From IMG/VR virus record IMGVR_UViG_3300045988_165115: a stretch of 39,673 bases of DNA; one strand, 5' to 3'. The notes beneath the pieces are model-generated. The model made no database searches and was not told where the DNA came from. It saw only the letters and a program-made list of their open reading frames with translations. How positions within the stretch are numbered: position 1 is the first letter of the stretch; the number at the start of each line of letters is the position of its first letter. Shown here piece by piece: positions 4,485-39,171 of this stretch. The translations under genes were made by a program, and so were the position numbers. This DNA comes from a virus. Its lineage: Duplodnaviria; Heunggongvirae; Uroviricota; Caudoviricetes.

Positions 4485-5563
4485 CAGAACGGGTCCTCCT
4501 GTACTCTGGCTTTTTTCTTTTTCCGCGCGCCGGGGGCTTCGGGTTCAGGCAGATAAGCATCAGACGGGCCGACACGGATTTCCGTCAGGGTGCCGTTCTG
4601 GTCCTGAGTAAACGTGACTTCCGAAACAAGCAGTTCGGTATTATCGAAACCACAGACCGGATCGAAGACAATCACCCGCTGGTTAGGCTGCCACAGCGTA
4701 CCGTTACCCTGTCGCCAGCCCTGCACCACATAGGTGGTTTCATCCGTCCGCGCCGCCCGTTGTCGGGCTTCAAAGTCAGCACGGGCAATACAGCCTGCCC
4801 CCGTAGCCTGCCCTGTCTGCCTGATATACATCGGACGGTAACGGGCAATAAATGCGTCCTCTGTGCGGGCCCGCAGCGCGGTGGTGGTAGCCTCACCGAA
4901 ATCATCGTCGTTTCCGGCACGCTGCCCCGCCACCTGGTAAACTGAAAACCGCTCCCGGATACTCTTCTCCGTATCGCAGGAAAGGATGTTTTCCCCGAGT
5001 ACCAGCGCGGTATGTGCCCGCGTTGAGCCAATACCGCCAATCACCAGCCTGCCGTGCGGGTCGTCGTAAGCCAGTGCCTGCTGCTGACCGAGTATTTTGT
5101 TGATCACCTCAATCACCGTTTCGCCGTGATCAGGCTGGACATCAGGAATAACACCCGACGGCGCACCGCTGTTCACCACCTCAATGCCGAAAGGCGCAGC
5201 AAGCGCCTGCGCAATCTGAACCAGCGATCGTCCGTTAAACGGTGTCGGTTCGGCTGCACAGTCAATCAGGTCAGCGGTCAGACTACGCCCGGCAATACCG
5301 GTGCTGACCGAACGGGCATCGTAACGAACGGGGGTCGCTTCCACCCAGCCAGTGATCACCAGCTCATCACCAATCAGCACTTCCACTTTTGAACCGTTTT
5401 TAATACGCGGCTGAAGCGTGGTGATACCCTCATCTCCCGGCCACTGGCGGGTGATCTCCACACTGAAATCCCGCGCCAGCCGTTCAATACCGGCACCGAT
5501 GCGCACCGATGTCCAGCCATTCCACTCCCGGCCATTTACCCGTAGCGTGACGTTATCGTTCAT
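4484..5563 (-). CDS. baseplate hub protein (Mu gpP / gp44-like)
   Basis: 359 aa directly downstream of the DNA circulation protein, as in Mu-like tails. Confidence 0.65.
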   Translation of the reverse strand: MNDNVTLRVNGREWNGWTSVRIGAGIERLARDFSVEITRQWPGDEGITTLQPRIKNGSKVEVLIGDELVITGWVEATPVRYDARSVSTGIAGRSLTADLIDCAAEPTPFNGRSLVQIAQALAAPFGIEVVNSGAPSGVIPDVQPDHGETVIEVINKILGQQQALAYDDPHGRLVIGGIGSTRAHTALVLGENILSCDTEKSIRERFSVYQVAGQRAGNDDDFGEATTTALRARTEDAFIARYRPMYIRQTGQATGAGCIARADFEARQRAARTDETTYVVQGWRQGNGTLWQPNQRVIVFDPVCGFDNTELLVSEVTFTQDQNGTLTEIRVGPSDAYLPEPEAPGARKKKKARVQEDPF

Positions 5564-6930
5564 TGCACTGGCACCTTCAGAGGGATCACCGGCACAAAGC
5601 CGGGATGCGTAATGGCATTACGCCGGATAATGTCCGCGTCACGCGCCGCGTTATCAAACCAGGTCGCCGCCAGCACCAGCGCGGGTAAAACCTCATCCGG
5701 CGTGCGCTGAATGATCCGTGCAGACTGTTCAAGGCGCGTGTTGATATCCGCATTCAGATCTGCTTTCACCCGGCGCAGCGCCAGAAACAGCGCATCACTG
5801 GTTGTACGGGACAACTCCTTATCAATTGCCGTATTCAGTGTGTCGCGAATGTCAGTCAGTTCTTCCCACGTCGGCAGGTCAACCGTGCTTTTCACCGCCG
5901 GTGCATTGTTCAGTGCCGGATGCGTGACGGAAGGCCAGCCAGTGCTCTGCGCGGGTGTTGTTGCCTGCCCCACTGCGGCATTCTGCATCACCGCGGAAGT
6001 TGTTGGCGCAGGCAATCGGGTAACGGCATACGCCGCTTCGCTGATTGCAGTCGTACGAAGGGTGCTGGCAACCACGTTACGCTGCTGCGTCGCCGTGGCG
6101 GTGGTTTTACTGTCCGTTTTCCAGACGCCGCGCGGTTGCAGATCGCTGCCAAGGCTGACACCAGAAAGCGTTTTGATCATGGTGACCAGGTCGCTGGCGT
6201 TACCGTAAAGGCGTTTCCCGGTACGCCACATTTTCTGCACCTGCTCAACGAAATTTTTGCCTGACGATGGTGGCGGCAGAAGTACCGAGATATCCCCCTG
6301 CAACAGCCTGGCCGCATCCGATACGGCAGAATCCACCACTTTCATCGCATCAGAAACATACCCAAGCATTGTGCTGACATTACCAACGACGTCGTTCTGC
6401 ACAAAATCCGCCACGCCATCGATACTGAAACCGCTGAAGCTGTCACTGATGCAGTCATCCAGTGCAGAACAGGATGACATCAGCGTCTGCGCCGTCGCCG
6501 CACCTGATATGGGGTAAGAGAGCTCTCCTGCTTCGACAAACTTTAGGTCAAAGCGGACAATACGCCCTTCACTTTTCGATGTGCTGACCCGAACTTCCCC
6601 GTCAACACAGACTTTCAGCTCACCGTATGTCGGATGGACAAGCGTGCCGGGACCGGGTTTATTCAGCGCGTCAATCAGGCGATCGCGCTGGTCAAAGCAG
6701 TCATCTCCCACCACATAAGCCGTGATGGACGGGCGGAAAGTGATTTTCCCCAGGTCTTCGGTATAGGGTTTGTCGCGGTTCGGGTATTCGTGCGTTTCCA
6801 CACGACGACCGGTTCCCGCACTTTCTTCTTCAACCTTAAACGGCACACCGCGAAATGACGCGTCCTGAAGTCTGTCTTTCCACGTCATATAAACTCCGTA
6901 CATAAAAAATCCCACCGGAGTGGGACTCAT
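5560..6930 (-). CDS. DNA circulation protein (Mu gpN family); real start possibly the internal MTWKDRL
   Basis: N-terminal motif WKDRLQDASFRGVPF...GRRVETHEYPNRDKPYTEDLGK is characteristic of the DNA_circ_N domain; follows the tape measure gene. Confidence 0.75.
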   Translation of the reverse strand: MSPTPVGFFMYGVYMTWKDRLQDASFRGVPFKVEEESAGTGRRVETHEYPNRDKPYTEDLGKITFRPSITAYVVGDDCFDQRDRLIDALNKPGPGTLVHPTYGELKVCVDGEVRVSTSKSEGRIVRFDLKFVEAGELSYPISGAATAQTLMSSCSALDDCISDSFSGFSIDGVADFVQNDVVGNVSTMLGYVSDAMKVVDSAVSDAARLLQGDISVLLPPPSSGKNFVEQVQKMWRTGKRLYGNASDLVTMIKTLSGVSLGSDLQPRGVWKTDSKTTATATQQRNVVASTLRTTAISEAAYAVTRLPAPTTSAVMQNAAVGQATTPAQSTGWPSVTHPALNNAPAVKSTVDLPTWEELTDIRDTLNTAIDKELSRTTSDALFLALRRVKADLNADINTRLEQSARIIQRTPDEVLPALVLAATWFDNAARDADIIRRNAITHPGFVPVIPLKVPVQ

Positions 6931-6948
6931 TAACAGATTAATTTTTCA

Positions 6949-8784
6949 TTACCTGCCAAAGCGCGTATAGCCAACATCATGGCTGACATCAAAACCGCTG
7001 GATCGCGTTTCCATAACCCGCATACCCGGAGGCGAATTCACAAAAGAGACCTTGATCTCACCATCAACTTTTGGCGCAGAAGCTTTGTTAATCATGAAGG
7101 GATTCGGGCCTGTGGCATCGGAGGCGTTGTTTGACTGAGCCAGATCTACCGCCGGATAAGGTGTGTATCCCCGCGCCGGTATTCCCGTCCCATAAGCATC
7201 ATAAGCACCCGCGCCCCACTGCGCAGAGTTAATGGCATCGACCGTGTCACCGGAACTGTCGGTAAACCACTCAATAATTGGCTTCAGCTTGTCCCACATA
7301 TCCTGAAACCACTTAACAACCGGCCCCCAGTTATTGATCACCATACCCAGCGGCGACCAGGCAAAAACTTTCTTAAGGAGTTCCCAGCCAGCCTCAAAAT
7401 AAGGACCAATGGTTTCCCAGAGTTTCTTAAAATAAGGTCCGACAACATCCCAGTTAGTGATAATTAATCCCGCAGCCAGGGCTATCGCCGTCGCAATCAT
7501 GCCAATCGGCGTCATCGACATAATCCTGCTGACAATACTGATGGCACCGCCAACGCCCATCAATCCCAGTTTCAGAATCGCAAGACCGGCAGCAAGCCCG
7601 ACGACGCCGCGAATAACCCGGGGATTTTCATCCGCAAACTTCGTGAATTTTTCCCCCAACTCCCCCAGCCACTGCGTGATGTTTTTAGCGTCATCAGAAA
7701 ATGCGCCACCAATAGCCGCAAGGCCGTTAGTTGCGGTCCCCGTCATTGCCTCCCACAGGTTGGACAGCGTACCAAGCTGTGCCTGAACACGTTTATTCAG
7801 GCTGGCCTGTTTATTCATCTTTTGCTGGATCTGATCGTAACCATCCTTTCCTTTATCGATCAGCGCATTGACCACCTGAAGGGTTTCGGCATCATCACCA
7901 AATATTGCCTTAAGTACACCTGTTCGCTTAACGTCGGTCAGTTTTCGCAGCTTTGTCAGTTGCTTAAACATGTTATCAAGACCGCCAAAACTTCCTTTGC
8001 TGTCAGTAAAATCGAGCTGTACCCCGAGTTTCTGGCGGGCCATGACTTTATTGACGTCCCTGATTTTCTTAACGCTTAATCCAGACTGAATAACTTTTCG
8101 CAGGGCATTACCTGCCGACTCCCCGTTCATCCCCATCTGATCCATCATGACGCTGATGGGGGCAAGGCTCTGGGCAGCCTGAAGACCGTCCTTATTCACC
8201 ATCTTCAGAATAGAACTGGTTTTAGTGAAAAAGGACAACATGTTGGTATCGTCAACGCCCAGATAAAACGCCTTCTGAATTGTGTCGAACAGCCCCATCA
8301 TGTCTTCTGATGCCGTTCCGGTAGCATCCTGCATCTTTGCGGCAAACTCAGCAGCCGCTTCCGGTGTTTTTTTCAGTTGTATCGCAAGATAAGCCGTCGC
8401 TTTACCCACACCGCCAAGAATGTTTTCTGCCGGGATCCCCTGACGCACCAGCATCTGCATCATATTCTGAAAATCAGCCGTTGTGCCGGGTAGCTGGTTA
8501 CCCAGGCCAATAGCCAGTTTATTGATGTCCTGAAAGCTCTTTCCGACCTCACCGTTCGCATCCATCATGGCAACTTTCAGCCCGGTGGCGGCGTTTTCCT
8601 GATCGGCATAAGATTTCAGGGAAAGCGTCAGACCCGCTGCCAGCCCGCCACCAAGCGCCAGCCCACCCTGTGACGCTTCTTCCGCCTGACGTTTAAATCC
8701 CCGGATTTTCTTTTGCATTTTCGACAGTGCGGGAGAAAGCCTGTCGACACCGGTGATCAACGCCTTAAGCTCAAATTCAGCCAT
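6949..8784 (-). CDS. tail tape measure protein
   Basis: 611 aa, Ala/Gly-rich with internal hydrophobic segments, located between the chaperone and baseplate genes. Confidence 0.8.
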   Translation of the reverse strand: MAEFELKALITGVDRLSPALSKMQKKIRGFKRQAEEASQGGLALGGGLAAGLTLSLKSYADQENAATGLKVAMMDANGEVGKSFQDINKLAIGLGNQLPGTTADFQNMMQMLVRQGIPAENILGGVGKATAYLAIQLKKTPEAAAEFAAKMQDATGTASEDMMGLFDTIQKAFYLGVDDTNMLSFFTKTSSILKMVNKDGLQAAQSLAPISVMMDQMGMNGESAGNALRKVIQSGLSVKKIRDVNKVMARQKLGVQLDFTDSKGSFGGLDNMFKQLTKLRKLTDVKRTGVLKAIFGDDAETLQVVNALIDKGKDGYDQIQQKMNKQASLNKRVQAQLGTLSNLWEAMTGTATNGLAAIGGAFSDDAKNITQWLGELGEKFTKFADENPRVIRGVVGLAAGLAILKLGLMGVGGAISIVSRIMSMTPIGMIATAIALAAGLIITNWDVVGPYFKKLWETIGPYFEAGWELLKKVFAWSPLGMVINNWGPVVKWFQDMWDKLKPIIEWFTDSSGDTVDAINSAQWGAGAYDAYGTGIPARGYTPYPAVDLAQSNNASDATGPNPFMINKASAPKVDGEIKVSFVNSPPGMRVMETRSSGFDVSHDVGYTRFGR

Positions 8785-33316: not shown

Positions 33317-33444
33317 TTTCATTACTGCAAATGCCCCTGCGGGGGCATTTATGGAAACGTAATTGACTCAATAATCGCCTGATGGCGAGGGTTTTCTTTA
33401 ACCAAAATTCAGCGCGGTGCAGCGCATATAACGTGGAGAACAAA

Positions 33445-33981
33445 ATGTCATTTATTAAAACTTTTTCTGGGAAGCATTTTTATTATGACAAGATAAATAA
33501 AGACGACATCGTTATTAACGATATCGCGGTTTCCCTTTCAAATATCTGCCGCTTTGCAGGACACCTTTCACACTTCTATAGCGTCGCCCAACATGCGGTG
33601 CTTTGCAGCATGCTGGTACCGCAGGAATTTGCTTTTGAAGCATTAATGCATGATGCAACAGAAGCGTATTGCCAGGACATCCCCGCAGCACTGAAACGCC
33701 TTCTTCCTGACTATAAACGGATGGAAGAAAAAATAGACGCCGTAATCCGTGAGAAATACGGGTTACCTCAGGCTATGAGCACGCCCGTGAAATATGCCGA
33801 TCTCATCATGCTGGCAACCGAACGCCGCGATCTCGGGCTTGATGATGGCTCTTTCTGGCCAGTATTGGAAGGTATCCCGGCAACAGAGATGTTCGAAGTT
33901 GTTCCTCTGGCTCCTGGCCATGCCTACGAGATATTTATGGAACGTTTTAAAGAGCTGCATAAGATACATAAGCAATCCTGA
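33445..33981 (+). CDS. HD-domain hydrolase, YfdR-like 5'-deoxynucleotidase
   Basis: HD motifs (SVAQHA ... LMHDATEAYCQD); GGAGAA Shine-Dalgarno upstream of the ATG at 33445. Confidence 0.6.
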   Translation: MSFIKTFSGKHFYYDKINKDDIVINDIAVSLSNICRFAGHLSHFYSVAQHAVLCSMLVPQEFAFEALMHDATEAYCQDIPAALKRLLPDYKRMEEKIDAVIREKYGLPQAMSTPVKYADLIMLATERRDLGLDDGSFWPVLEGIPATEMFEVVPLAPGHAYEIFMERFKELHKIHKQS

Positions 33982-34021: not shown

Positions 34022-34282
34022 ATGAGGTTATCAAAAATGCTTCAAATGCTGACACTTGAGGAATGGGCTGCGGAAAAATTTAGGAGTAATCCTCCAAGTG
34101 TGTCCACATTGCGTCGTTATGCTAAGCAGAATTTATTTTGTCCACCAGCAATGAAACAAGGTCGACTCTGGCGAGTACGTGAGGACGCAGAGTTAGTTGG
34201 GGAATTAGTTACTCCAGTAATCAAGAAAAGTGATTCTATTATTCTGCAAAGGATTTTAAGCAATGGCAGCCAGACCACGTAA
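34022..34282 (+). CDS. xis: excisionase (lambda Xis-like); start uncertain, alternative ATGs at 34037 and 34046
   Basis: LTLEEWAAEKFRSNPPSVSTLRRYAKQNLFCPPAMKQGRLW parallels lambda Xis; overlaps the int start. Confidence 0.7.
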   Translation: MRLSKMLQMLTLEEWAAEKFRSNPPSVSTLRRYAKQNLFCPPAMKQGRLWRVREDAELVGELVTPVIKKSDSIILQRILSNGSQTT

Positions 34283-35390
34283 AAATAATGTTTCAGTACC
34301 TAACTTGTATCCGCTTTATAGTAGAAAAGTAAATAAAGTCTATTGGCGATATAAGCATCCAGTGACCGGGAAATTTCATTCGTTGGGCACAAATGAAGCT
34401 GAAGCTATTGCTATTGCCACTGAAGCTAACACTCGTCTGGCTGAGCAAAGAACCCGGCAGATTCTAGCTATCAGTGATAGGATCGCAACCAGCAAAGGAA
34501 AAGCGATCACAACGTCAACCTGGTTAGATCGCTATCAAGCGATCCAGGATGACAGGCTCAAAAGTGGTGATATAAGACTCAACACCTATAAGCAAAAAGC
34601 TAAACCAGTATCCTTGCTCAGAGAACGAGCAGGAATGAAGTTGATCTCATCCGTTGATGTTAGAGATATAGCACAATTGCTTGATGAGTATATTGCAGCT
34701 GGACAGCCTAGAATGGCCCAAGTCGTTAGGTCTGTATTGATCGATGTGTTTAAGGAAGCACAGCATTATGGCGAAGTTCCGCCAGGGTATAACCCTGCTC
34801 TTGCGACGAAGCAACCCAAAAGAAAAATTACCCGTCAACGCCTCAGCCTGGAAGAATGGCAAAAAATATTCGATATAGCAGACGCCAGTCATCGTTACAT
34901 GGGAAATGCCATGCTCCTAGCTTTGGTCACTGGGCAGCGTTTGGGAGATATATCCAAAATGAAATTTAGTGATATTTGGGAAGATCATCTTCACGTCATT
35001 CAGGAAAAGACTGGAAGCAAAATCGCTATCCCTCTTTCTCTTCGCCTCAATGCGATTAACTGGAGTTTACGCGATGTAATAGCCCGCTGCCGTGACTATG
35101 CAGTCAGCCCATACCTAGTGCATTTTTTCCGTTCAACTTCACAAGCAGAACGTGGGGCACAGGTTAAATCCAATACATTGACGATGAACTTTAGTAAAGC
35201 GAGAGATTTAGCAGGAATTGACTGGGGTGATGGCTCACCCGCAACATTCCATGAACAAAGATCGTTATCTGAACGCCTGTACAAGGAGCAAGGGATAGAT
35301 ACCAGAAAGCTACTTGGGCATAAAACACAACAACAAACCGATCGTTACCATGATGACCGAGGGAAAGGTTGGAGCAAAGTAGCTTTGTGA
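34263..35390 (+). CDS. int: tyrosine site-specific integrase, lambda Int family
   Basis: 375 aa; catalytic-region motifs (LALVTGQRLGDISKMKFSD; HEQRSLSERLY; LLGHKTQQQTDRYHDDRG) align with lambda Int. Confidence 0.9.
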   Translation: MAARPRKNNVSVPNLYPLYSRKVNKVYWRYKHPVTGKFHSLGTNEAEAIAIATEANTRLAEQRTRQILAISDRIATSKGKAITTSTWLDRYQAIQDDRLKSGDIRLNTYKQKAKPVSLLRERAGMKLISSVDVRDIAQLLDEYIAAGQPRMAQVVRSVLIDVFKEAQHYGEVPPGYNPALATKQPKRKITRQRLSLEEWQKIFDIADASHRYMGNAMLLALVTGQRLGDISKMKFSDIWEDHLHVIQEKTGSKIAIPLSLRLNAINWSLRDVIARCRDYAVSPYLVHFFRSTSQAERGAQVKSNTLTMNFSKARDLAGIDWGDGSPATFHEQRSLSERLYKEQGIDTRKLLGHKTQQQTDRYHDDRGKGWSKVAL

Positions 35391-35600
35391 GCGTTTAAGT
35401 TTCTCAATCCCACATTAATTATCTCATCACACATGTAACAGGCCAAACAGACTGCTCTGAGCGACGAACCGTTGTTGACCAGTAACGCCATAGAGTATAT
35501 TCAGTAAGTGTTCCAATGTATATAAGAAATGCGCTGTGTATATTTTTAATTCAAAATAGTTTGAAGCACAATCATGAAACAGATTCTTATGAATACAAAA

Positions 35601-36716
35601 TTAAATTAAATCAAATAGCCCATGTTCATCTATAGCCTTTGAACTAATTAAGTTCGCGGCTTCTATGTCATTGTCACTTGCCTCAGAAATAAGGAAAAAT
35701 GAATCAACATGATTTTGCAAAATAATTTCCTTATACTTCTTGAGCCATTGTAATTTACCTGTAGTGAACAATACTTTACGCGGTAGCAAAATACGGCTAA
35801 AAACTGATGGAAGATACTCACTTCTATTAAATGGAATAAAAGGGTCGCCTAAAGAAAGAATAGTTAGACGATTAAATTCACCGTGCGAATTCAATTTTTC
35901 AGCTGATTTGGCTATACCACTTGGTAAAAAAACACCTGTCTTGATACCGTTGCGTAAAGCAACAACAGCCATCATTTTATCAAAGGCAGTACCTCCAAAT
36001 AATAAGGAATATCCTTTTTTAACAGAAAGATCAATAGTATCAAGAACAACTTGTTTTTCTATATCACTTGGTGACGTGCTCGAAATTATCGAAAGATCAA
36101 AATCAGTAAATAACTGCCCAGTATAATAAAGATTTTTGCCGGTGAAAGTTGACAACTTTAAAGGAAACATTTTATCATCATGCTTAATTTCAGATACATT
36201 AAGATCTGTTAAGGATGGATAGTTAAAGTTTGGTGAGGCTTTTCCGTGTTTATTATTTTTTGATGCCTGCGGACTAAAAACTAGAATTTCATTTTTATTA
36301 TTACACAGGTAATCCTGTATCATTTTTTTTACAATATCCCAATCAAGACCACCGTGACCACAACCTAAAGCTGGCAGGGTGATTGTTTTTCCATGTTTAT
36401 TATCCAAATATTTCGAGAGCCAATGCAGTCCTTTTTCGATATATTCGTACTTAGACTTATTTCTCCAATGATCCTTGGTGGGAAAGTTTATGATTTCTAT
36501 TTCCTTACCATACGTATCATTACCTTTCCAAACAGCTGGTCTTCCTGGAGATATTTCTCCTTTTTTACACAGCAATACGTATTCATTATACATTTCAGGA
36601 AACTTATTCTTAAAAGCAAAAGCAACCCCTGCCCCCATTACACCAACACAATTAACTGTATTAATTCTAATGTCAGCAGCATAATCGAAAAAATCACCAT
36701 CAACATATCTAATCAT
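35601..36716 (-). CDS. macrodomain protein (TARG1/DarG-type) with a C-terminal Rossmann/SLOG-like domain; candidate DarG-like partner
   Basis: Start set at MIRYVDG, preceded by AAGGAGG; macro motifs GDFFDYAADIRINTVNCVGVMGAGVAFAFKNKF and LPALGCGHGGLDW resemble TARG1/DarG; C-terminal LLFGGTAFDKMMAVVA glycine-rich loop; AT-rich. Confidence 0.6.
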   Translation of the reverse strand: MIRYVDGDFFDYAADIRINTVNCVGVMGAGVAFAFKNKFPEMYNEYVLLCKKGEISPGRPAVWKGNDTYGKEIEIINFPTKDHWRNKSKYEYIEKGLHWLSKYLDNKHGKTITLPALGCGHGGLDWDIVKKMIQDYLCNNKNEILVFSPQASKNNKHGKASPNFNYPSLTDLNVSEIKHDDKMFPLKLSTFTGKNLYYTGQLFTDFDLSIISSTSPSDIEKQVVLDTIDLSVKKGYSLLFGGTAFDKMMAVVALRNGIKTGVFLPSGIAKSAEKLNSHGEFNRLTILSLGDPFIPFNRSEYLPSVFSRILLPRKVLFTTGKLQWLKKYKEIILQNHVDSFFLISEASDNDIEAANLISSKAIDEHGLFDLI

Positions 36717-37186
36717 AAAACCTCCTTTGGTCAGAGTATACATCCTTATTTCTGGCTCTTCAATTCTATTGTCAAAAACTTTTACAAAGTCTGCATCAGT
36801 AAAACTGATGGCGCATTTTAAAATTAAAATCAATATGTCCATATCAAACGTTATATTTGTTATTTTTTGTATTTATTATTCATATCCATCATGTGCTATT
36901 AAATCGCCCAAAAGAACATAATAAATTATGTGCACCACTTTCTTCTTATTGAATTTTGGATTACATTACGATCTAAATTAGATCTTTTGCCAATATCATA
37001 AACATATGCAGCAAACGTTGCAACAAGCTGTTCTCATTCTAACAGTTAGTAGAATATAAACTCTGTAATTAGCACACTGAATTCCCTTCATCTATGAGTT
37101 ACAACATCCTTTAAGTGAATAGTATTGTTAGTTTAAATCTATTAATATCATTCATAAAACTATTTTATATAGTTAAAGTCATTATA

Positions 37187-37214
37187 AATCCATCTGAATA
37201 TATACAGATGGATT
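37187..37214. repeat. perfect 10-bp inverted repeat in the intergenic gap between the DarT-like and macro genes
   Basis: AATCCATCTG - 8-nt loop - CAGATGGATT. Confidence 0.5.
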
Positions 37215-37423
37215 CTGCCAATAGTCTTTGCAGGTGAAGTGCATGTTATATATTTTTTAGGGAATATATTTTCTAATTATTTCTCAGATAAAAATTTGCA
37301 GAACGAAATTACTTTACATAATACCGAATGTTACAGATTATTTTATTGCATATAAGCATTGAACTAACCACTATCACAGTGACTATGTTAATCATAAAAT
37401 CTGCATCAAATTCAAAAAGCTCC

Positions 37424-38770
37424 TCATAAACTGTTCCCCTGCAATCTTTGGAGAACTTCATCCCGGAGATCATCGATCCCGTCAGAAACCTGAGCTAACC
37501 AAACTTGACTTAATGAGCCAATATCAGCCTTACTTAGGGCTACTAACATATTGATATCTTCAGAAGATGTAACTATATCGAACAACTGATTTTTATTCCT
37601 CCCTTTAGCTACTATTTCCCCCAATAAATCATCATACGTAACTAACATCATTATTTTTCTAACTAGATCGGTTTGTATGACTGGCAGATCTTCTGTCAAA
37701 ATTCGTTGTAGCATCGCAAGTGACTTCCTAGGATGCTCTCCATCTGCCTCATGCATGTAATTATTATTCCAACGTGTTTTAGGCCCTTTGCCTATATCAT
37801 GCAAATAAGCGGCCAACTCCAAAACTTCCTGATGAATAGAGTCTAATTGATAAAACTCTGGTGAATTAACTACAAGACTAGCCACTCGTCGACTATGAGA
37901 GCCAACATCTTCATTATGAGGCCCGTAGCTCGTCCCCAATCCATCGATATCTTCAAGCTCTTGGATGGAGGAGAAATTACCACGAATTGCACTTAGAGCA
38001 TCACTAATACTTTGAAATTTTGGCCTCGTTTCTCGTTGAAATGAAGTTACATATTCAATAGCTTCATCAAAAAGCATTTTTAACACTACCGGTCCCGTGA
38101 CTAAGGATGAGGACCAGTTTCCAGGTTGATAATAATAATGTTGAAAATCACCCTCAACAATATTTGGTGGAACAATACCTTTGTTCTGGAAAATACTCCT
38201 CACAATATCAGACATAGAACGATTCCATGTAATTATCTGATTTATTTCGCTTAAAGAGACATGATCTGGCAGCAAAAGTTCTGCCATCTTTTTATGCCTC
38301 TGAGTCTCGTCAGCATAACCCCATGCATTATTATCTATGGTAGCCCAATCTAATACATCAAGCTGGTCAGCTTGAGTATTACCAGAATAAAAGTTCGGTG
38401 GATTAACTGTATTTGCGGAAGCATCTGTAAAATATGACCCATTCCTTGTTTCGAGTGATAATATAGAAACTGAAAGATAGATAATAAATTGCTGATCTAC
38501 ATTTTTTTTATGAAGAACAGACAATTGCATGGGCGTTTTTTTTGCAAAATAAAAAGGAACATAATCATGAACACAACGACCATTCGTATTAGGCACCTGC
38601 ATCACTGCCCTACGCCCCTGTATTCCTTCATCAGCAACATTCACATGTGATATACGACGTGCAATTTTCTGATTAGTCGAAAACAGCCCAGTTTCAATTA
38701 TTGATTCAAGATTATCTACTGACGTAAAGTGATATGCATTTCGGTGTCTATGGTGAACAGGAACTGTCAT
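37424..38770 (-). CDS. DarT-like (DUF4433) DNA ADP-ribosyltransferase domain fused to a C-terminal HD phosphohydrolase domain
   Basis: N-terminal YHFTSVDNLESIIETGL, HDYVPFYFAKKTPM, YFTDASANT and AELLL match DarT motifs including the catalytic glutamate position; C-terminal H...LHDIGKG HD signature; GGGGGA Shine-Dalgarno upstream. Confidence 0.6.
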   Translation of the reverse strand: MTVPVHHRHRNAYHFTSVDNLESIIETGLFSTNQKIARRISHVNVADEGIQGRRAVMQVPNTNGRCVHDYVPFYFAKKTPMQLSVLHKKNVDQQFIIYLSVSILSLETRNGSYFTDASANTVNPPNFYSGNTQADQLDVLDWATIDNNAWGYADETQRHKKMAELLLPDHVSLSEINQIITWNRSMSDIVRSIFQNKGIVPPNIVEGDFQHYYYQPGNWSSSLVTGPVVLKMLFDEAIEYVTSFQRETRPKFQSISDALSAIRGNFSSIQELEDIDGLGTSYGPHNEDVGSHSRRVASLVVNSPEFYQLDSIHQEVLELAAYLHDIGKGPKTRWNNNYMHEADGEHPRKSLAMLQRILTEDLPVIQTDLVRKIMMLVTYDDLLGEIVAKGRNKNQLFDIVTSSEDINMLVALSKADIGSLSQVWLAQVSDGIDDLRDEVLQRLQGNSL

Positions 38771-39112
38771 GTATCCCCCATGAAAAACTATAAAAATTTA
38801 GGTAGTGTGCTTTATATTATTACAGTAATTGTAAATTACCGATATAGGATATCAACCTTCCTGTGATCTAGGTCACTCAGGATGAGCAACTTCCTATTGA
38901 TTAGGATTCAAAATGTTTGAAATGTGCGCTTACAGAACCACAGGCCACTTTGAGCGAAGAACAGACCTAAATATAAACGAGGGTTAATCAGCAATAATTA
39001 TAATAAACTGAGGTATGCCTAATTGGAACTTGACAATATAACTACCATCTCTCCCTAAACAACTAGGAGTTTTGATAACTTATTTTGATAAAATTTTGAT
39101 AACCGTTAGCAG

Positions 39113-39148
39113 ACTAACAAAAAACAACGGGAGCGTTACACTCCCGTT
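39113..39148 (-). terminator. rho-independent terminator downstream of the icd 3' end
   Basis: AACGGGAG-loop-CTCCCGTT hairpin followed on the minus strand by TTGTTTTTTGTT. Confidence 0.7.
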
Positions 39149-39171
39149 AATAGATTTAACAAATCACGATA

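Follow-up and report, generated by a model that had tools for sequence, protein, structure and literature searches.

A predicted DarT-HD/macro-DprA module in an e14-type prophage is a hybrid of two lineages from a widespread branch of DarTG systems

The virus record IMGVR_UViG_3300045988_165115 in IMG/VR (Caudoviricetes; 39,673 nucleotides, referred to in full as the window) carries an e14-type prophage in which two AT-rich genes lie on the minus strand between intE and the icd attachment fragment. One, darT-HD, encodes a DarT ADP-ribosyltransferase fused to an HD domain; the other, macro-DprA, encodes a macrodomain fused to a DprA-like domain. Comparison of the two proteins with their relatives indicates that the module is a hybrid, consisting of a toxin from one lineage (A) and an antitoxin from another (B). 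It appears to belong to a new, large, deep and uncharacterised branch of the DarTG systems, defined by DarT-HD and, in most cases, macro-DprA fusions. A first-pass annotation of the DNA had already picked out the two genes, and both open reading frames (ORFs) are indeed present and intact, one at 37424-38770 with 448 aa and the other at 35601-36842 with 413 aa in its longest form, in a region of 27-40% GC vs roughly 44-48% in the adjoining prophage. The features of the two genes are as follows.

37424..38770, minus strand: predicted darT-HD toxin gene, lineage A, 448 aa; intact ORF with Pfam DarT and HD matches
38126..38770, minus strand: DarT ADP-ribosyltransferase domain, DarT2 (thymidine) type, aa 1-215
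37427..38098, minus strand: HD phosphohydrolase domain, aa 225-448, of a subfamily nearly confined to DarT fusions
35601..36716, minus strand: predicted macro-DprA-like antitoxin gene, lineage B, 371 aa plus stop; its start is M43 of the 413-aa ORF
36252..36716, minus strand: DarG/TARG1-type macrodomain, aa 1-155
35604..36215, minus strand: DprA/ShosA-like Rossmann domain, aa 168-371, replacing the canonical DarT-binding C-terminal domain of DarG
36721..36728, minus strand: ribosome-binding site AAAGGAGG, read from the sequence, 4 nt upstream of the macro-DprA ATG

Profile searches for DarT, HD and Macro all gave significant matches. In the toxin, Pfam DarT (PF14487) matches aa 13-213 with an E-value of 5e-40 and the PADLOC DarT model matches at 1e-42, and Pfam HD (PF01966) matches aa 290-361 (E 2.8e-6; 28 bits vs a gathering score of 22). 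The DarT hallmark motifs and the fusion to about 230 aa with an HD signature, both described in the first-pass annotation, are therefore real. Across 47 sequences at 31-93% identity, DarT residues H14, R54, Y74 and E164 and HD residues H285, H292, H324, D325, K328, H346, D381 and D416 each differ in at most one sequence, and the catalytic Glu, E164, is found in 47 of 47. The protein thus combines the DarT fold and catalytic His/Tyr/Glu of DarTG2 toxins with an intact H...HD...D metal-binding signature on the all-alpha fold of the PF01966 superfamily. It is not a single-domain protein of 190-230 aa, having 448 residues with the conserved HD domain at aa 225-448. In an AlphaFold model (predicted local distance difference test, 91; predicted template modelling score, 0.85) the HD domain is predicted to pack rigidly and confidently on DarT. 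A fold search with the HD domain ranked the HD-like body of a tRNA nucleotidyltransferase first and nucleotide phosphohydrolases next. As judged from its distribution, this HD subfamily is dedicated to DarT and found almost only in fusion with it: an HD-only profile drew just 252 matches from 1.84 billion representative proteins, the 63 strongest of which have the HD domain at ~aa 224-445 of ~445-aa proteins or are fragments. DarT was present in all four longer variants scanned among the strong matches, one of them with N-terminal leucine-rich repeats. P0248 (932 aa, from the representative library) has leucine-rich repeats, then DarT, then HD, and its layout suggests that a DarT-HD unit may also serve as the effector end of a sensor protein. 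The DarT-type HD domain stands alone (E 1e-39 to 1e-55) in P0251, P0264, P0273, P0275, P0282 and P0285, of ~213-225 aa, which could be contig fragments or products of split darT/HD genes.

The smaller ORF matches Pfam Macro (E 4e-17), PADLOC DarG (E 7e-58, over profile positions 1-160 of 329 only) and NCBIfam DarG (positions 1-162 of 338 only). The matched part is an N-terminal DarG/TARG1-type macrodomain with the catalytic lysine, as in DarTG2 antitoxins; K81 and the GCGHGG loop are invariant among the relatives compared. Behind it lies the Gly-loop, Rossmann-like domain that had also been recognised from the sequence, the fold of which is of the DprA/SLOG kind. A profile of this C-terminal domain, searched against the PDB sequence set, matches DprA (E 1.7e-4) and ShosA only; ShosA is its closest structure. 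The order of its motifs (YP..L...LY..G, Gly loop, LPxGI, S.G.P, conserved Arg) is colinear with DprA. Pfam DNA_processg_A (PF02481) matches 16 of 31 family members, the relatives lying below its gathering score of 29.6, and the C-terminal domain in the window has no Pfam match at E <= 1. Neither a threshold score nor the SAM and winged-helix domains of DprA/Smf proteins were found, the Rossmann core alone being common to both. We also considered the idea that the canonical DarG C-terminal domain is itself a cryptic DprA-like domain, which was not supported. The C-terminal domain by itself gave no DarG match in NCBIfam and only a marginal DprA match; hhalign against two canonical DarG C-terminal domains gave E-values of 0.24 and 0.51, with single sequences as templates; and the M. 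tuberculosis DarG C-terminal domain structure is absent among the 50 Foldseek matches listed.

The start of the antitoxin needed correction. An ATG at 36716 is common to the homologues L002, L003 and L013, and the AAAGGAGG site upstream of it is kept in the Citrobacter copy although the rest of the spacer has decayed there. The homologue starts and the ribosome-binding site together indicate that the real product has 371 aa and that the spacer between the genes is 707 nt long. The first 42 codons of the 413-aa ORF are read-through of pseudogene debris, the 3′ end of an old darT-HD. The macro start is likewise placed 39-42 codons too early in the RefSeq proteins WP_197710563.1 (410 aa) and WP_198559745.1 (413 aa), cluster P0121.

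The hybrid nature of the module is evident from its relatives. Lineage A is the type of Vibrio and of the E. coli locus L004, and lineage B that of LR-28 (L002). The window toxin is 74-77% identical to lineage-A toxins (77% to the Vibrio DarT-HD) and 43% identical to the lineage-B toxin of LR-28. The antitoxin shows the reverse, with 85% identity to lineage B (LR-28) and 44-45% to lineage-A partners. In three other E. coli genomes the macro gene is 83% identical in DNA and 85% in protein, encodes 371 aa from a start equivalent to M43 of the window ORF, and overlaps an upstream 444-aa darT-HD by 4 bp; the protein of that darT-HD is 42% identical to the window toxin. Among 21 tabulated loci, the identity of the toxin rises and falls with that of the antitoxin in all but three, namely the window, Citrobacter freundii L003 and Citrobacter sp. 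L013.

The spacer holds traces of the genes that are missing. The first-pass annotation had reported structured intergenic DNA of about 700 bp; the distance holds (707 nt, 36717-37423), but the supposed structure is pseudogene debris, with the following parts.

37185..37423, minus strand: pseudogene remnant, 5′ part (~aa 1-97) of a lineage-A macro-DprA gene, frameshifted; found by tblastn and a Macro hidden Markov model (HMM)
36717..37189, minus strand: pseudogene remnant, 3′ part (~aa 261-444) of a darT-HD gene of lineage B, broken by stops and frameshifts; found by tblastn and an HD HMM
37187..37214, no strand: abutting 14-nt perfect inverted repeat at the junction of the two remnants

In the first remnant, tblastn with the L004 and L007 macro proteins aligns aa 8-26 at 37422-37366, and the Macro HMM matches with positions 7-26 at 37425-37366 and 73-97 ('FTCKDYWQNPSVY') at 37253-37185. 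In the second, positions 37-104 (E 2e-7) and 147-210 (E 2e-5) of the HD HMM fall at 37189-36983 and 36944-36753, tblastn for a lineage-B darT-HD gives E-values of 6e-12 and 2e-10, and nucleotide homology to L002 (LR-28), at 83%, runs ~210 nt upstream of the macro start, to 36928. The remnants meet at ~37185-37189, within the 14-nt palindrome, which may be a deletion footprint or chance; other repeats in the spacer are trivial. Citrobacter L013 has the same remnants and the same junction, macro HMM position 97 abutting HD HMM position 37, which indicates that the hybrid-forming event occurred once. A search of the gap for a hidden gene or RNA, proposed in the first-pass annotation, came back empty: Rfam has no match in the spacer at permissive E-values, the lone sizeable ORF (54 aa, 37309-37473) is spurious and part of the frameshifted macro remnant, and the spacer evolves neutrally, with 62% identity and 105 gap columns relative to C. 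freundii L003.

These remnants would be explained by a deletion of ~1.7 kb, a size estimated from the gene lengths of the family, across an array of toxin A, antitoxin A, toxin B and antitoxin B that was either tandem or recombinant. Antitoxin A would have been lost for the most part, and toxin B up to about codon 260. What is left is toxin A, then 707 nt of debris in decay, then antitoxin B, which has a strong ribosome-binding site of its own. The hybrid has spread among mobile elements of Enterobacteriaceae with both genes under purifying selection; relative to C. freundii L003, the ratio of nonsynonymous to synonymous substitution rates (dN/dS) is 0.16 for the toxin and 0.12 for the antitoxin, at dS ~0.55-0.67, the antitoxin values as a whole being 0.12-0.14. 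DNA identical to the window is found in 7 of 5426 complete E. coli genomes, each time between intE and icd. The mixed pair persists in spite of the distance between the lineages, whose antitoxin C-terminal domains are 32-33% identical and whose HD domains are 41-43% identical. A second case of a pair pulled apart is seen in L041 (4628-6040, Chloroflexi metagenome-assembled genome (MAG)), where an IS66-family transposase lies between darT-HD and a macro-DprA-methyltransferase gene.

The first-pass annotation had called the fusions unusual. They are not a local oddity: they are the rule in a large conserved family, where the genes are adjacent or overlap. A homologue search with DarT-HD returned 958 proteins at E <= 1e-5; the best 120 of these all cover at least 69% of the query, and ~445-aa proteins are abundant. 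A scan of one genome per species gave 55 loci, 53 with a full-length or contig-truncated DarT-HD, from Gamma-, Alpha- and Deltaproteobacteria, Bacteroidota, Firmicutes, Chloroflexi, Acidobacteria, Fibrobacter and two archaeal MAGs. We typed the downstream genes of these 53 loci with HMMs built from our own alignments. The commonest downstream gene encodes a macrodomain with a DprA-like domain in ~350-420 aa (27 loci). Five loci have a macrodomain, a DprA-like domain, DUF1156 and an N6-adenine methyltransferase in one protein of 1157-1425 aa, so that a macro and DprA-like partner stands next to DarT-HD in 32 of 53 loci. Macrodomains with other C-terminal extensions account for nine, a short DarT followed by a macro protein of canonical length for seven, a macro gene interrupted by a contig end for one, and in four the macro gene was not found. 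Stop and start of DarT-HD and macro-DprA overlap in L002, L004 and L007. The same is true of the pairs on 12 IMG/VR viral contigs with DarT-HD; the exceptions are one copy that matches the window exactly and one contig cut off within darT-HD. On this sequence evidence, DarT-HD followed by macro-DprA is a conserved operon, usually overlapping, and a widespread and distinct architecture. Relatives are found in a P2-like prophage remnant, in an integrative element with genes for an integrase, a TraI-type relaxase and a HipA toxin, and beside conjugation genes; the free phage genomes of INPHARED contain no DNA match and no DarT-HD protein. Literature searches found no published description of DarT-HD or of a macro-DprA antitoxin.

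Two kinds of variant locus have further features. The methyltransferase-extended loci are L027, L034, L041, L047 and L050, from Clostridia, Desulfatibia, Chloroflexi and Euryarchaeota MAGs. A SNF2-NOV_C helicase lies directly upstream of DarT-HD in L034, L047 and L050, and a DUF499 protein lies downstream in L034. L041 encodes a helicase of related type, which carries an OLD-type TOPRIM domain. DarT-HD thus appears to be embedded here in a larger methylase/helicase defence locus. The three-gene arrangement is found in L028, L029, L030, L038, L044, L046 and L065 (Bacteroidales, Prevotella, Alistipes, Fibrobacter) and consists of DarT-HD (~452 aa), a short DarT (205-217 aa) and a macro protein (312-359 aa) without a DprA-like domain. 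A single eraser would appear to serve two DarT toxins there, and the layout suggests a resemblance to the tandem ancestor proposed for the window.

The setting of the module is that of a cargo (moron) slot of the e14 family, which includes the following features.

35436..38962, no strand: e14-type prophage cargo slot between intE and the icd 3′ attachment fragment, from blastn against K-12 e14
34263-35390, plus strand: intE, the int-proximal flank of the slot
38828..38855, minus strand: candidate promoter TTGATA-16-TACAAT, ~58 nt upstream of darT-HD, from a consensus scan (10/12 matches)

By blastn, homology to K-12 e14 stops at window position 35435, 45 nt past intE, and restarts at 38963, which confirms the earlier placement of the pair in the slot that holds lit in e14. 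Its content stands in place of C0293/ymfD/ymfE/lit of K-12, and the RefSeq annotation of the identical locus L001 agrees with this layout. Lit is the abortive-infection peptidase of K-12 e14. The window proteins and their mechanism are unrelated to it, although they occupy the same int-proximal slot and both are plausibly abortive-infection cargo. Promoter-like sites are not enriched over shuffled sequence across the region, and the site at 38828..38855 is a candidate only. No minus-strand terminator is predicted between the co-oriented darT-HD and macro-DprA. Elsewhere in the prophage, a separate 199-aa HD protein (33382-33981, plus strand; YfdR-like in RefSeq), distinct from the HD domain fused to DarT, is encoded just upstream of xisE together with yfdP/yfdQ-like genes. 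K-12 e14 has ymfH at that position, which makes this prophage a mosaic. Beside the icd fragment, Rfam gives a match below threshold to the small RNA STnc150 (39066-39152, plus strand; 25 bits vs a gathering score of 60), and a strong hairpin of terminator type (39125-39149, minus strand) overlaps it; the small RNA C0293 is annotated in K-12 on the cargo side of the icd-fragment boundary.

DarTG2 systems, which combine DarT2 with the macrodomain protein DarG2, occur in Thermus, M. tuberculosis, enteropathogenic E. coli and an E. coli P2 prophage, the last reportedly validated by LeRoux et al. in 2022. We traced the E. coli DarTG2 of published defence work by its cloning primer (PMC11257639) to a P2-like prophage. 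It consists of a 193-aa DarT and a 323-aa DarG, in keeping with the first-pass statement that canonical DarT has about 200-230 aa and that DarTG genes are adjacent. Since it has neither an HD nor a DprA-like domain, the validated system is not already this subtype; in the V. cholerae DarTG of the Seed lab, DarG has the canonical length of 347 aa. The window module resembles DarTG2 in the N-terminal DarG/TARG1-type macrodomain of its antitoxin, with catalytic Lys and diphosphate loop, in the order of toxin then antitoxin, in the overlapping stop and start seen in the DarT-HD family, and in its carriage on prophages and islands. It differs in the extra ~225-aa HD domain of the toxin (448 aa vs 193 aa), in a DprA-like antitoxin C-terminal domain with no similarity to those of canonical DarG2, and in genes that come from different lineages and lie 707 nt apart. 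Canonical DarG neutralises DarT both enzymatically and through binding by its C-terminal domain (PMC7003065, PMC11481870), and canonical DarTG systems give phage defence (PMC11543638, PMC11257639). In E. coli, RecA/RecF recombination and nucleotide excision repair both relieve the damage done by DarT (PMC7003065).

Other known systems share single elements. The antitoxin ShosA is DprA-like, does not bind its toxin, needs binding of single-stranded DNA (ssDNA) and RecA, and is intrinsically unstable (PMC12961424, PMC11961720). Its mode of action, via ssDNA and RecA rather than toxin binding (PMC12961424), is the one we propose below for the window antitoxin. The module has no ShosT-like phosphoribosyltransferase and so lacks the pairing that defines ShosTA, and ShosA has an N-terminal SAM domain where the window protein has a macrodomain (~15% identity). 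With DprA/Smf the C-terminal domain shares the Rossmann fold and colinear motif order; the window protein differs in lacking SAM and winged-helix domains, in its fusion to a macrodomain and in scores below the thresholds, and a role in transformation is not expected. DarTG1, with a NADAR antitoxin, and DarHTG, with a UvrD-like helicase and ARH-type DarG3, also combine DarT with an enzymatic ADP-ribose eraser (PMC11543638, PMC13069673). Here the eraser is a macrodomain, there is no helicase gene, and the extra domains are fused to the toxin and antitoxin themselves; the ARH-type eraser and helicase set DarHTG/DarG3 apart from the window module. The H...HD...H...(H/D)D...D motifs of the HD domain are colinear with residues 194-346 of E. 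coli Cca, a class-II CCA-adding enzyme, to which it is marginally similar (E 0.002-0.005) and whose nucleotidyltransferase head domain it lacks. Cca is said to have phosphatase and 2′,3′-cyclic phosphodiesterase activities (Yakunin et al. 2004), which are not simply transferable to the window HD domain.

The first-pass reading of a diverged ADP-ribosylation module with an extra nucleotide-hydrolase domain is borne out, at the level of domains, by the profile and fold searches. Taking the evidence jointly, we think it probable that this is a DarTG2-derived hybrid module in which a DarT-HD toxin with a second activity is held in check by an ssDNA-tethered, target-directed antitoxin. DarT-HD would ADP-ribosylate thymidines in ssDNA using NAD+ and so block replication, and the HD domain would act in addition as a metal-dependent phosphodiesterase, either on that nucleic acid or on the ADP-ribose adduct. 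In the uninfected cell, the DprA-like domain would hold the antitoxin on ssDNA and might engage RecA, like ShosA and DprA, and the macrodomain would erase ADP-ribose marks on DNA. The antitoxin would thus act on the target, in a type IV-like manner, rather than through a co-evolved grip on the toxin, which would explain why a non-cognate antitoxin suffices. Phage infection may tip the balance, through loss of the antitoxin or its titration by phage ssDNA, so that phage DNA is modified; the outcome would be abortive-infection defence, the same role as that of Lit in the K-12 slot. We favour a target-directed antitoxin because the diverged, non-cognate pair persists, because ShosA sets a precedent, and because macro-DprA-methyltransferase fusions exist, the fused DNA methyltransferase being another DNA-directed self-protection activity. 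A role in defence is argued from the position in the Lit slot, from relatives on prophage contigs and integrative elements, and from the one relative with leucine-rich repeats. Toxicity, neutralisation and phage defence are what we infer for the module from its sequence.

Several observations weigh against this interpretation. The HD and DprA-like domains are not always together, as is clear from the seven loci where DarT-HD is followed by a short DarT and a macro protein of canonical length, and from the nine with other C-terminal extensions. Both proteins fall under the NCBIfam equivalog cut-offs, the toxin with 135.4 vs 150 bits for toxin_DarT (NF048013) and the antitoxin with 224.7 vs 250 bits for antitoxin_DarG (NF048014), a cut-off that some relatives just attain; these scores fit the generic names that RefSeq gives to identical genes. 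The C-terminal domain in the window is only marginal to DprA (TIGR00732, E 0.013, 14.7 vs 191 bits), and binding of ssDNA or RecA by it would be an extrapolation from the fold. The HD domain is likewise only weakly similar to that of E. coli Cca (BLASTP E 0.005; hhalign E 0.0023, probability 12%). The spacer is no richer in promoter-like sites than expected by chance, and transcription of the antitoxin through 707 nt of debris is an assumption. One of the seven E. coli copies, L010 (E. coli MDR_56, NZ_CP019903.1, locus 5026-7915), has IS50R inside the DarT domain. What remains of the gene there is a partial DarT pseudogene plus a piece annotated as 'HD domain-containing protein', next to an intact macro-DprA, so the toxin can be lost. 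Finally, a conserved toxin-antitoxin interface could still explain cross-neutralisation.

Other roles for the extra domains have to be weighed against the same facts. The toxin might make its lesion in two steps, although we find this improbable: the HD domain would cut the ADP-ribose pyrophosphate on DNA and leave phosphoribosyl-thymidine, which would resist macrodomains, including the anti-DarT macrodomains of phages, and stray lesions in the host would be survived by recombinational repair promoted by the DprA-like domain. Such a step suits the invariant HD signature, which fits a two-metal phosphodiesterase centre, the confident packing of DarT and HD in the structural model, the near confinement of the HD subfamily to DarT proteins and the DprA-like domain that usually accompanies it in the partner. 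Macrodomain counter-defences of phages do exist (PMC13309987). An intact, conserved DarG-type macrodomain would be pointless, however, if the product resisted it; in seven loci DarT-HD stands beside a canonical DarT and DarG, and a DprA-like domain is absent; and the phosphodiesterase (PDE) fold of SidE matches no better than dozens of generic HD/PDE proteins. We give a similarly small chance to a more general version, in which the HD domain either cuts next to the adduct or shortens it, to phosphoribosyl-thymidine for instance, the lesion is refractory to macrodomain and NADAR erasers of phages, and the DprA-like domain loads RecA.

Nicking or degradation of the DarT-bound ssDNA by a Cas3-like HD nuclease is another option, and also a doubtful one. 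HD nucleases target ssDNA, the substrate of DarT, the metal ligands are invariant, and PADLOC and NCBIfam Cas3 HD profiles match weakly (E 0.003-0.06). The best fold match is nevertheless the HD-like body of tRNA nucleotidyltransferase, with nucleotide phosphohydrolases behind it, and nuclease damage could not be reversed by a macrodomain, yet a macro partner is nearly universal.

That same fold match bears on a regulatory role, since in tRNA nucleotidyltransferases the HD-like body serves as a binding module. The HD domain would then be a nucleotide sensor or an antitoxin docking platform that gates DarT, and the DprA-like (SLOG) domain a sensor of small ligands. The two domains mostly travel together, and other defence systems use SLOG domains to sense signals derived from ADP-ribose (PMC9503650, PMC11204291). 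We find this explanation unlikely as well: all HD catalytic residues are invariant across very deep divergence, which argues for catalysis, and the non-cognate toxin-antitoxin pairing persists.

Toxin-antitoxin modules stabilise mobile elements, and the pair might be an addiction or stabilisation cassette, or a decaying relic, the hybrid perhaps being a disarmed toxin that a leftover antitoxin still holds in check. Its birth by deletion amid pseudogene debris, its rarity (7 of 5426 complete E. coli genomes) and the IS50R insertion in darT of one copy would agree with this. We think it unlikely in view of two intact ORFs with all catalytic residues, dN/dS of 0.12-0.16 since the split of E. coli and Citrobacter while the spacer fell to 62% identity, a slot that houses a known abortive-infection gene in K-12, and the defence against phages by canonical DarTG systems (PMC11543638, PMC11257639).

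Few systems are known that ADP-ribosylate DNA bases reversibly. DarTG is one of them, and work to turn DarT2 into a genome-editing tool is already under way (PMC13368585). In practical terms, the macro gene in RefSeq runs too far, into debris, and automated annotation would call the pair ordinary DarTG. The DarT-HD branch implies chemistry and regulation outside current DarTG models, namely a second enzymatic step on DNA or on the adduct, and an antidote that may be directed at the target DNA instead of holding on to the toxin. Were the lesion in fact made in two steps, the system would be a bacterial counterpart, on DNA, of the ADP-ribosyltransferase-plus-PDE logic of SidE, with a built-in answer to phage anti-DarT factors. 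The e14 int-proximal slot can be regarded as an exchangeable site for defence cargo, with Lit in K-12 and DarT-HD/macro-DprA here. The hybrid itself amounts to a natural swap experiment, in which a toxin has been kept with a foreign antitoxin under purifying selection, and bears on how specific toxin-antitoxin pairing must be when the antitoxin is an enzyme.

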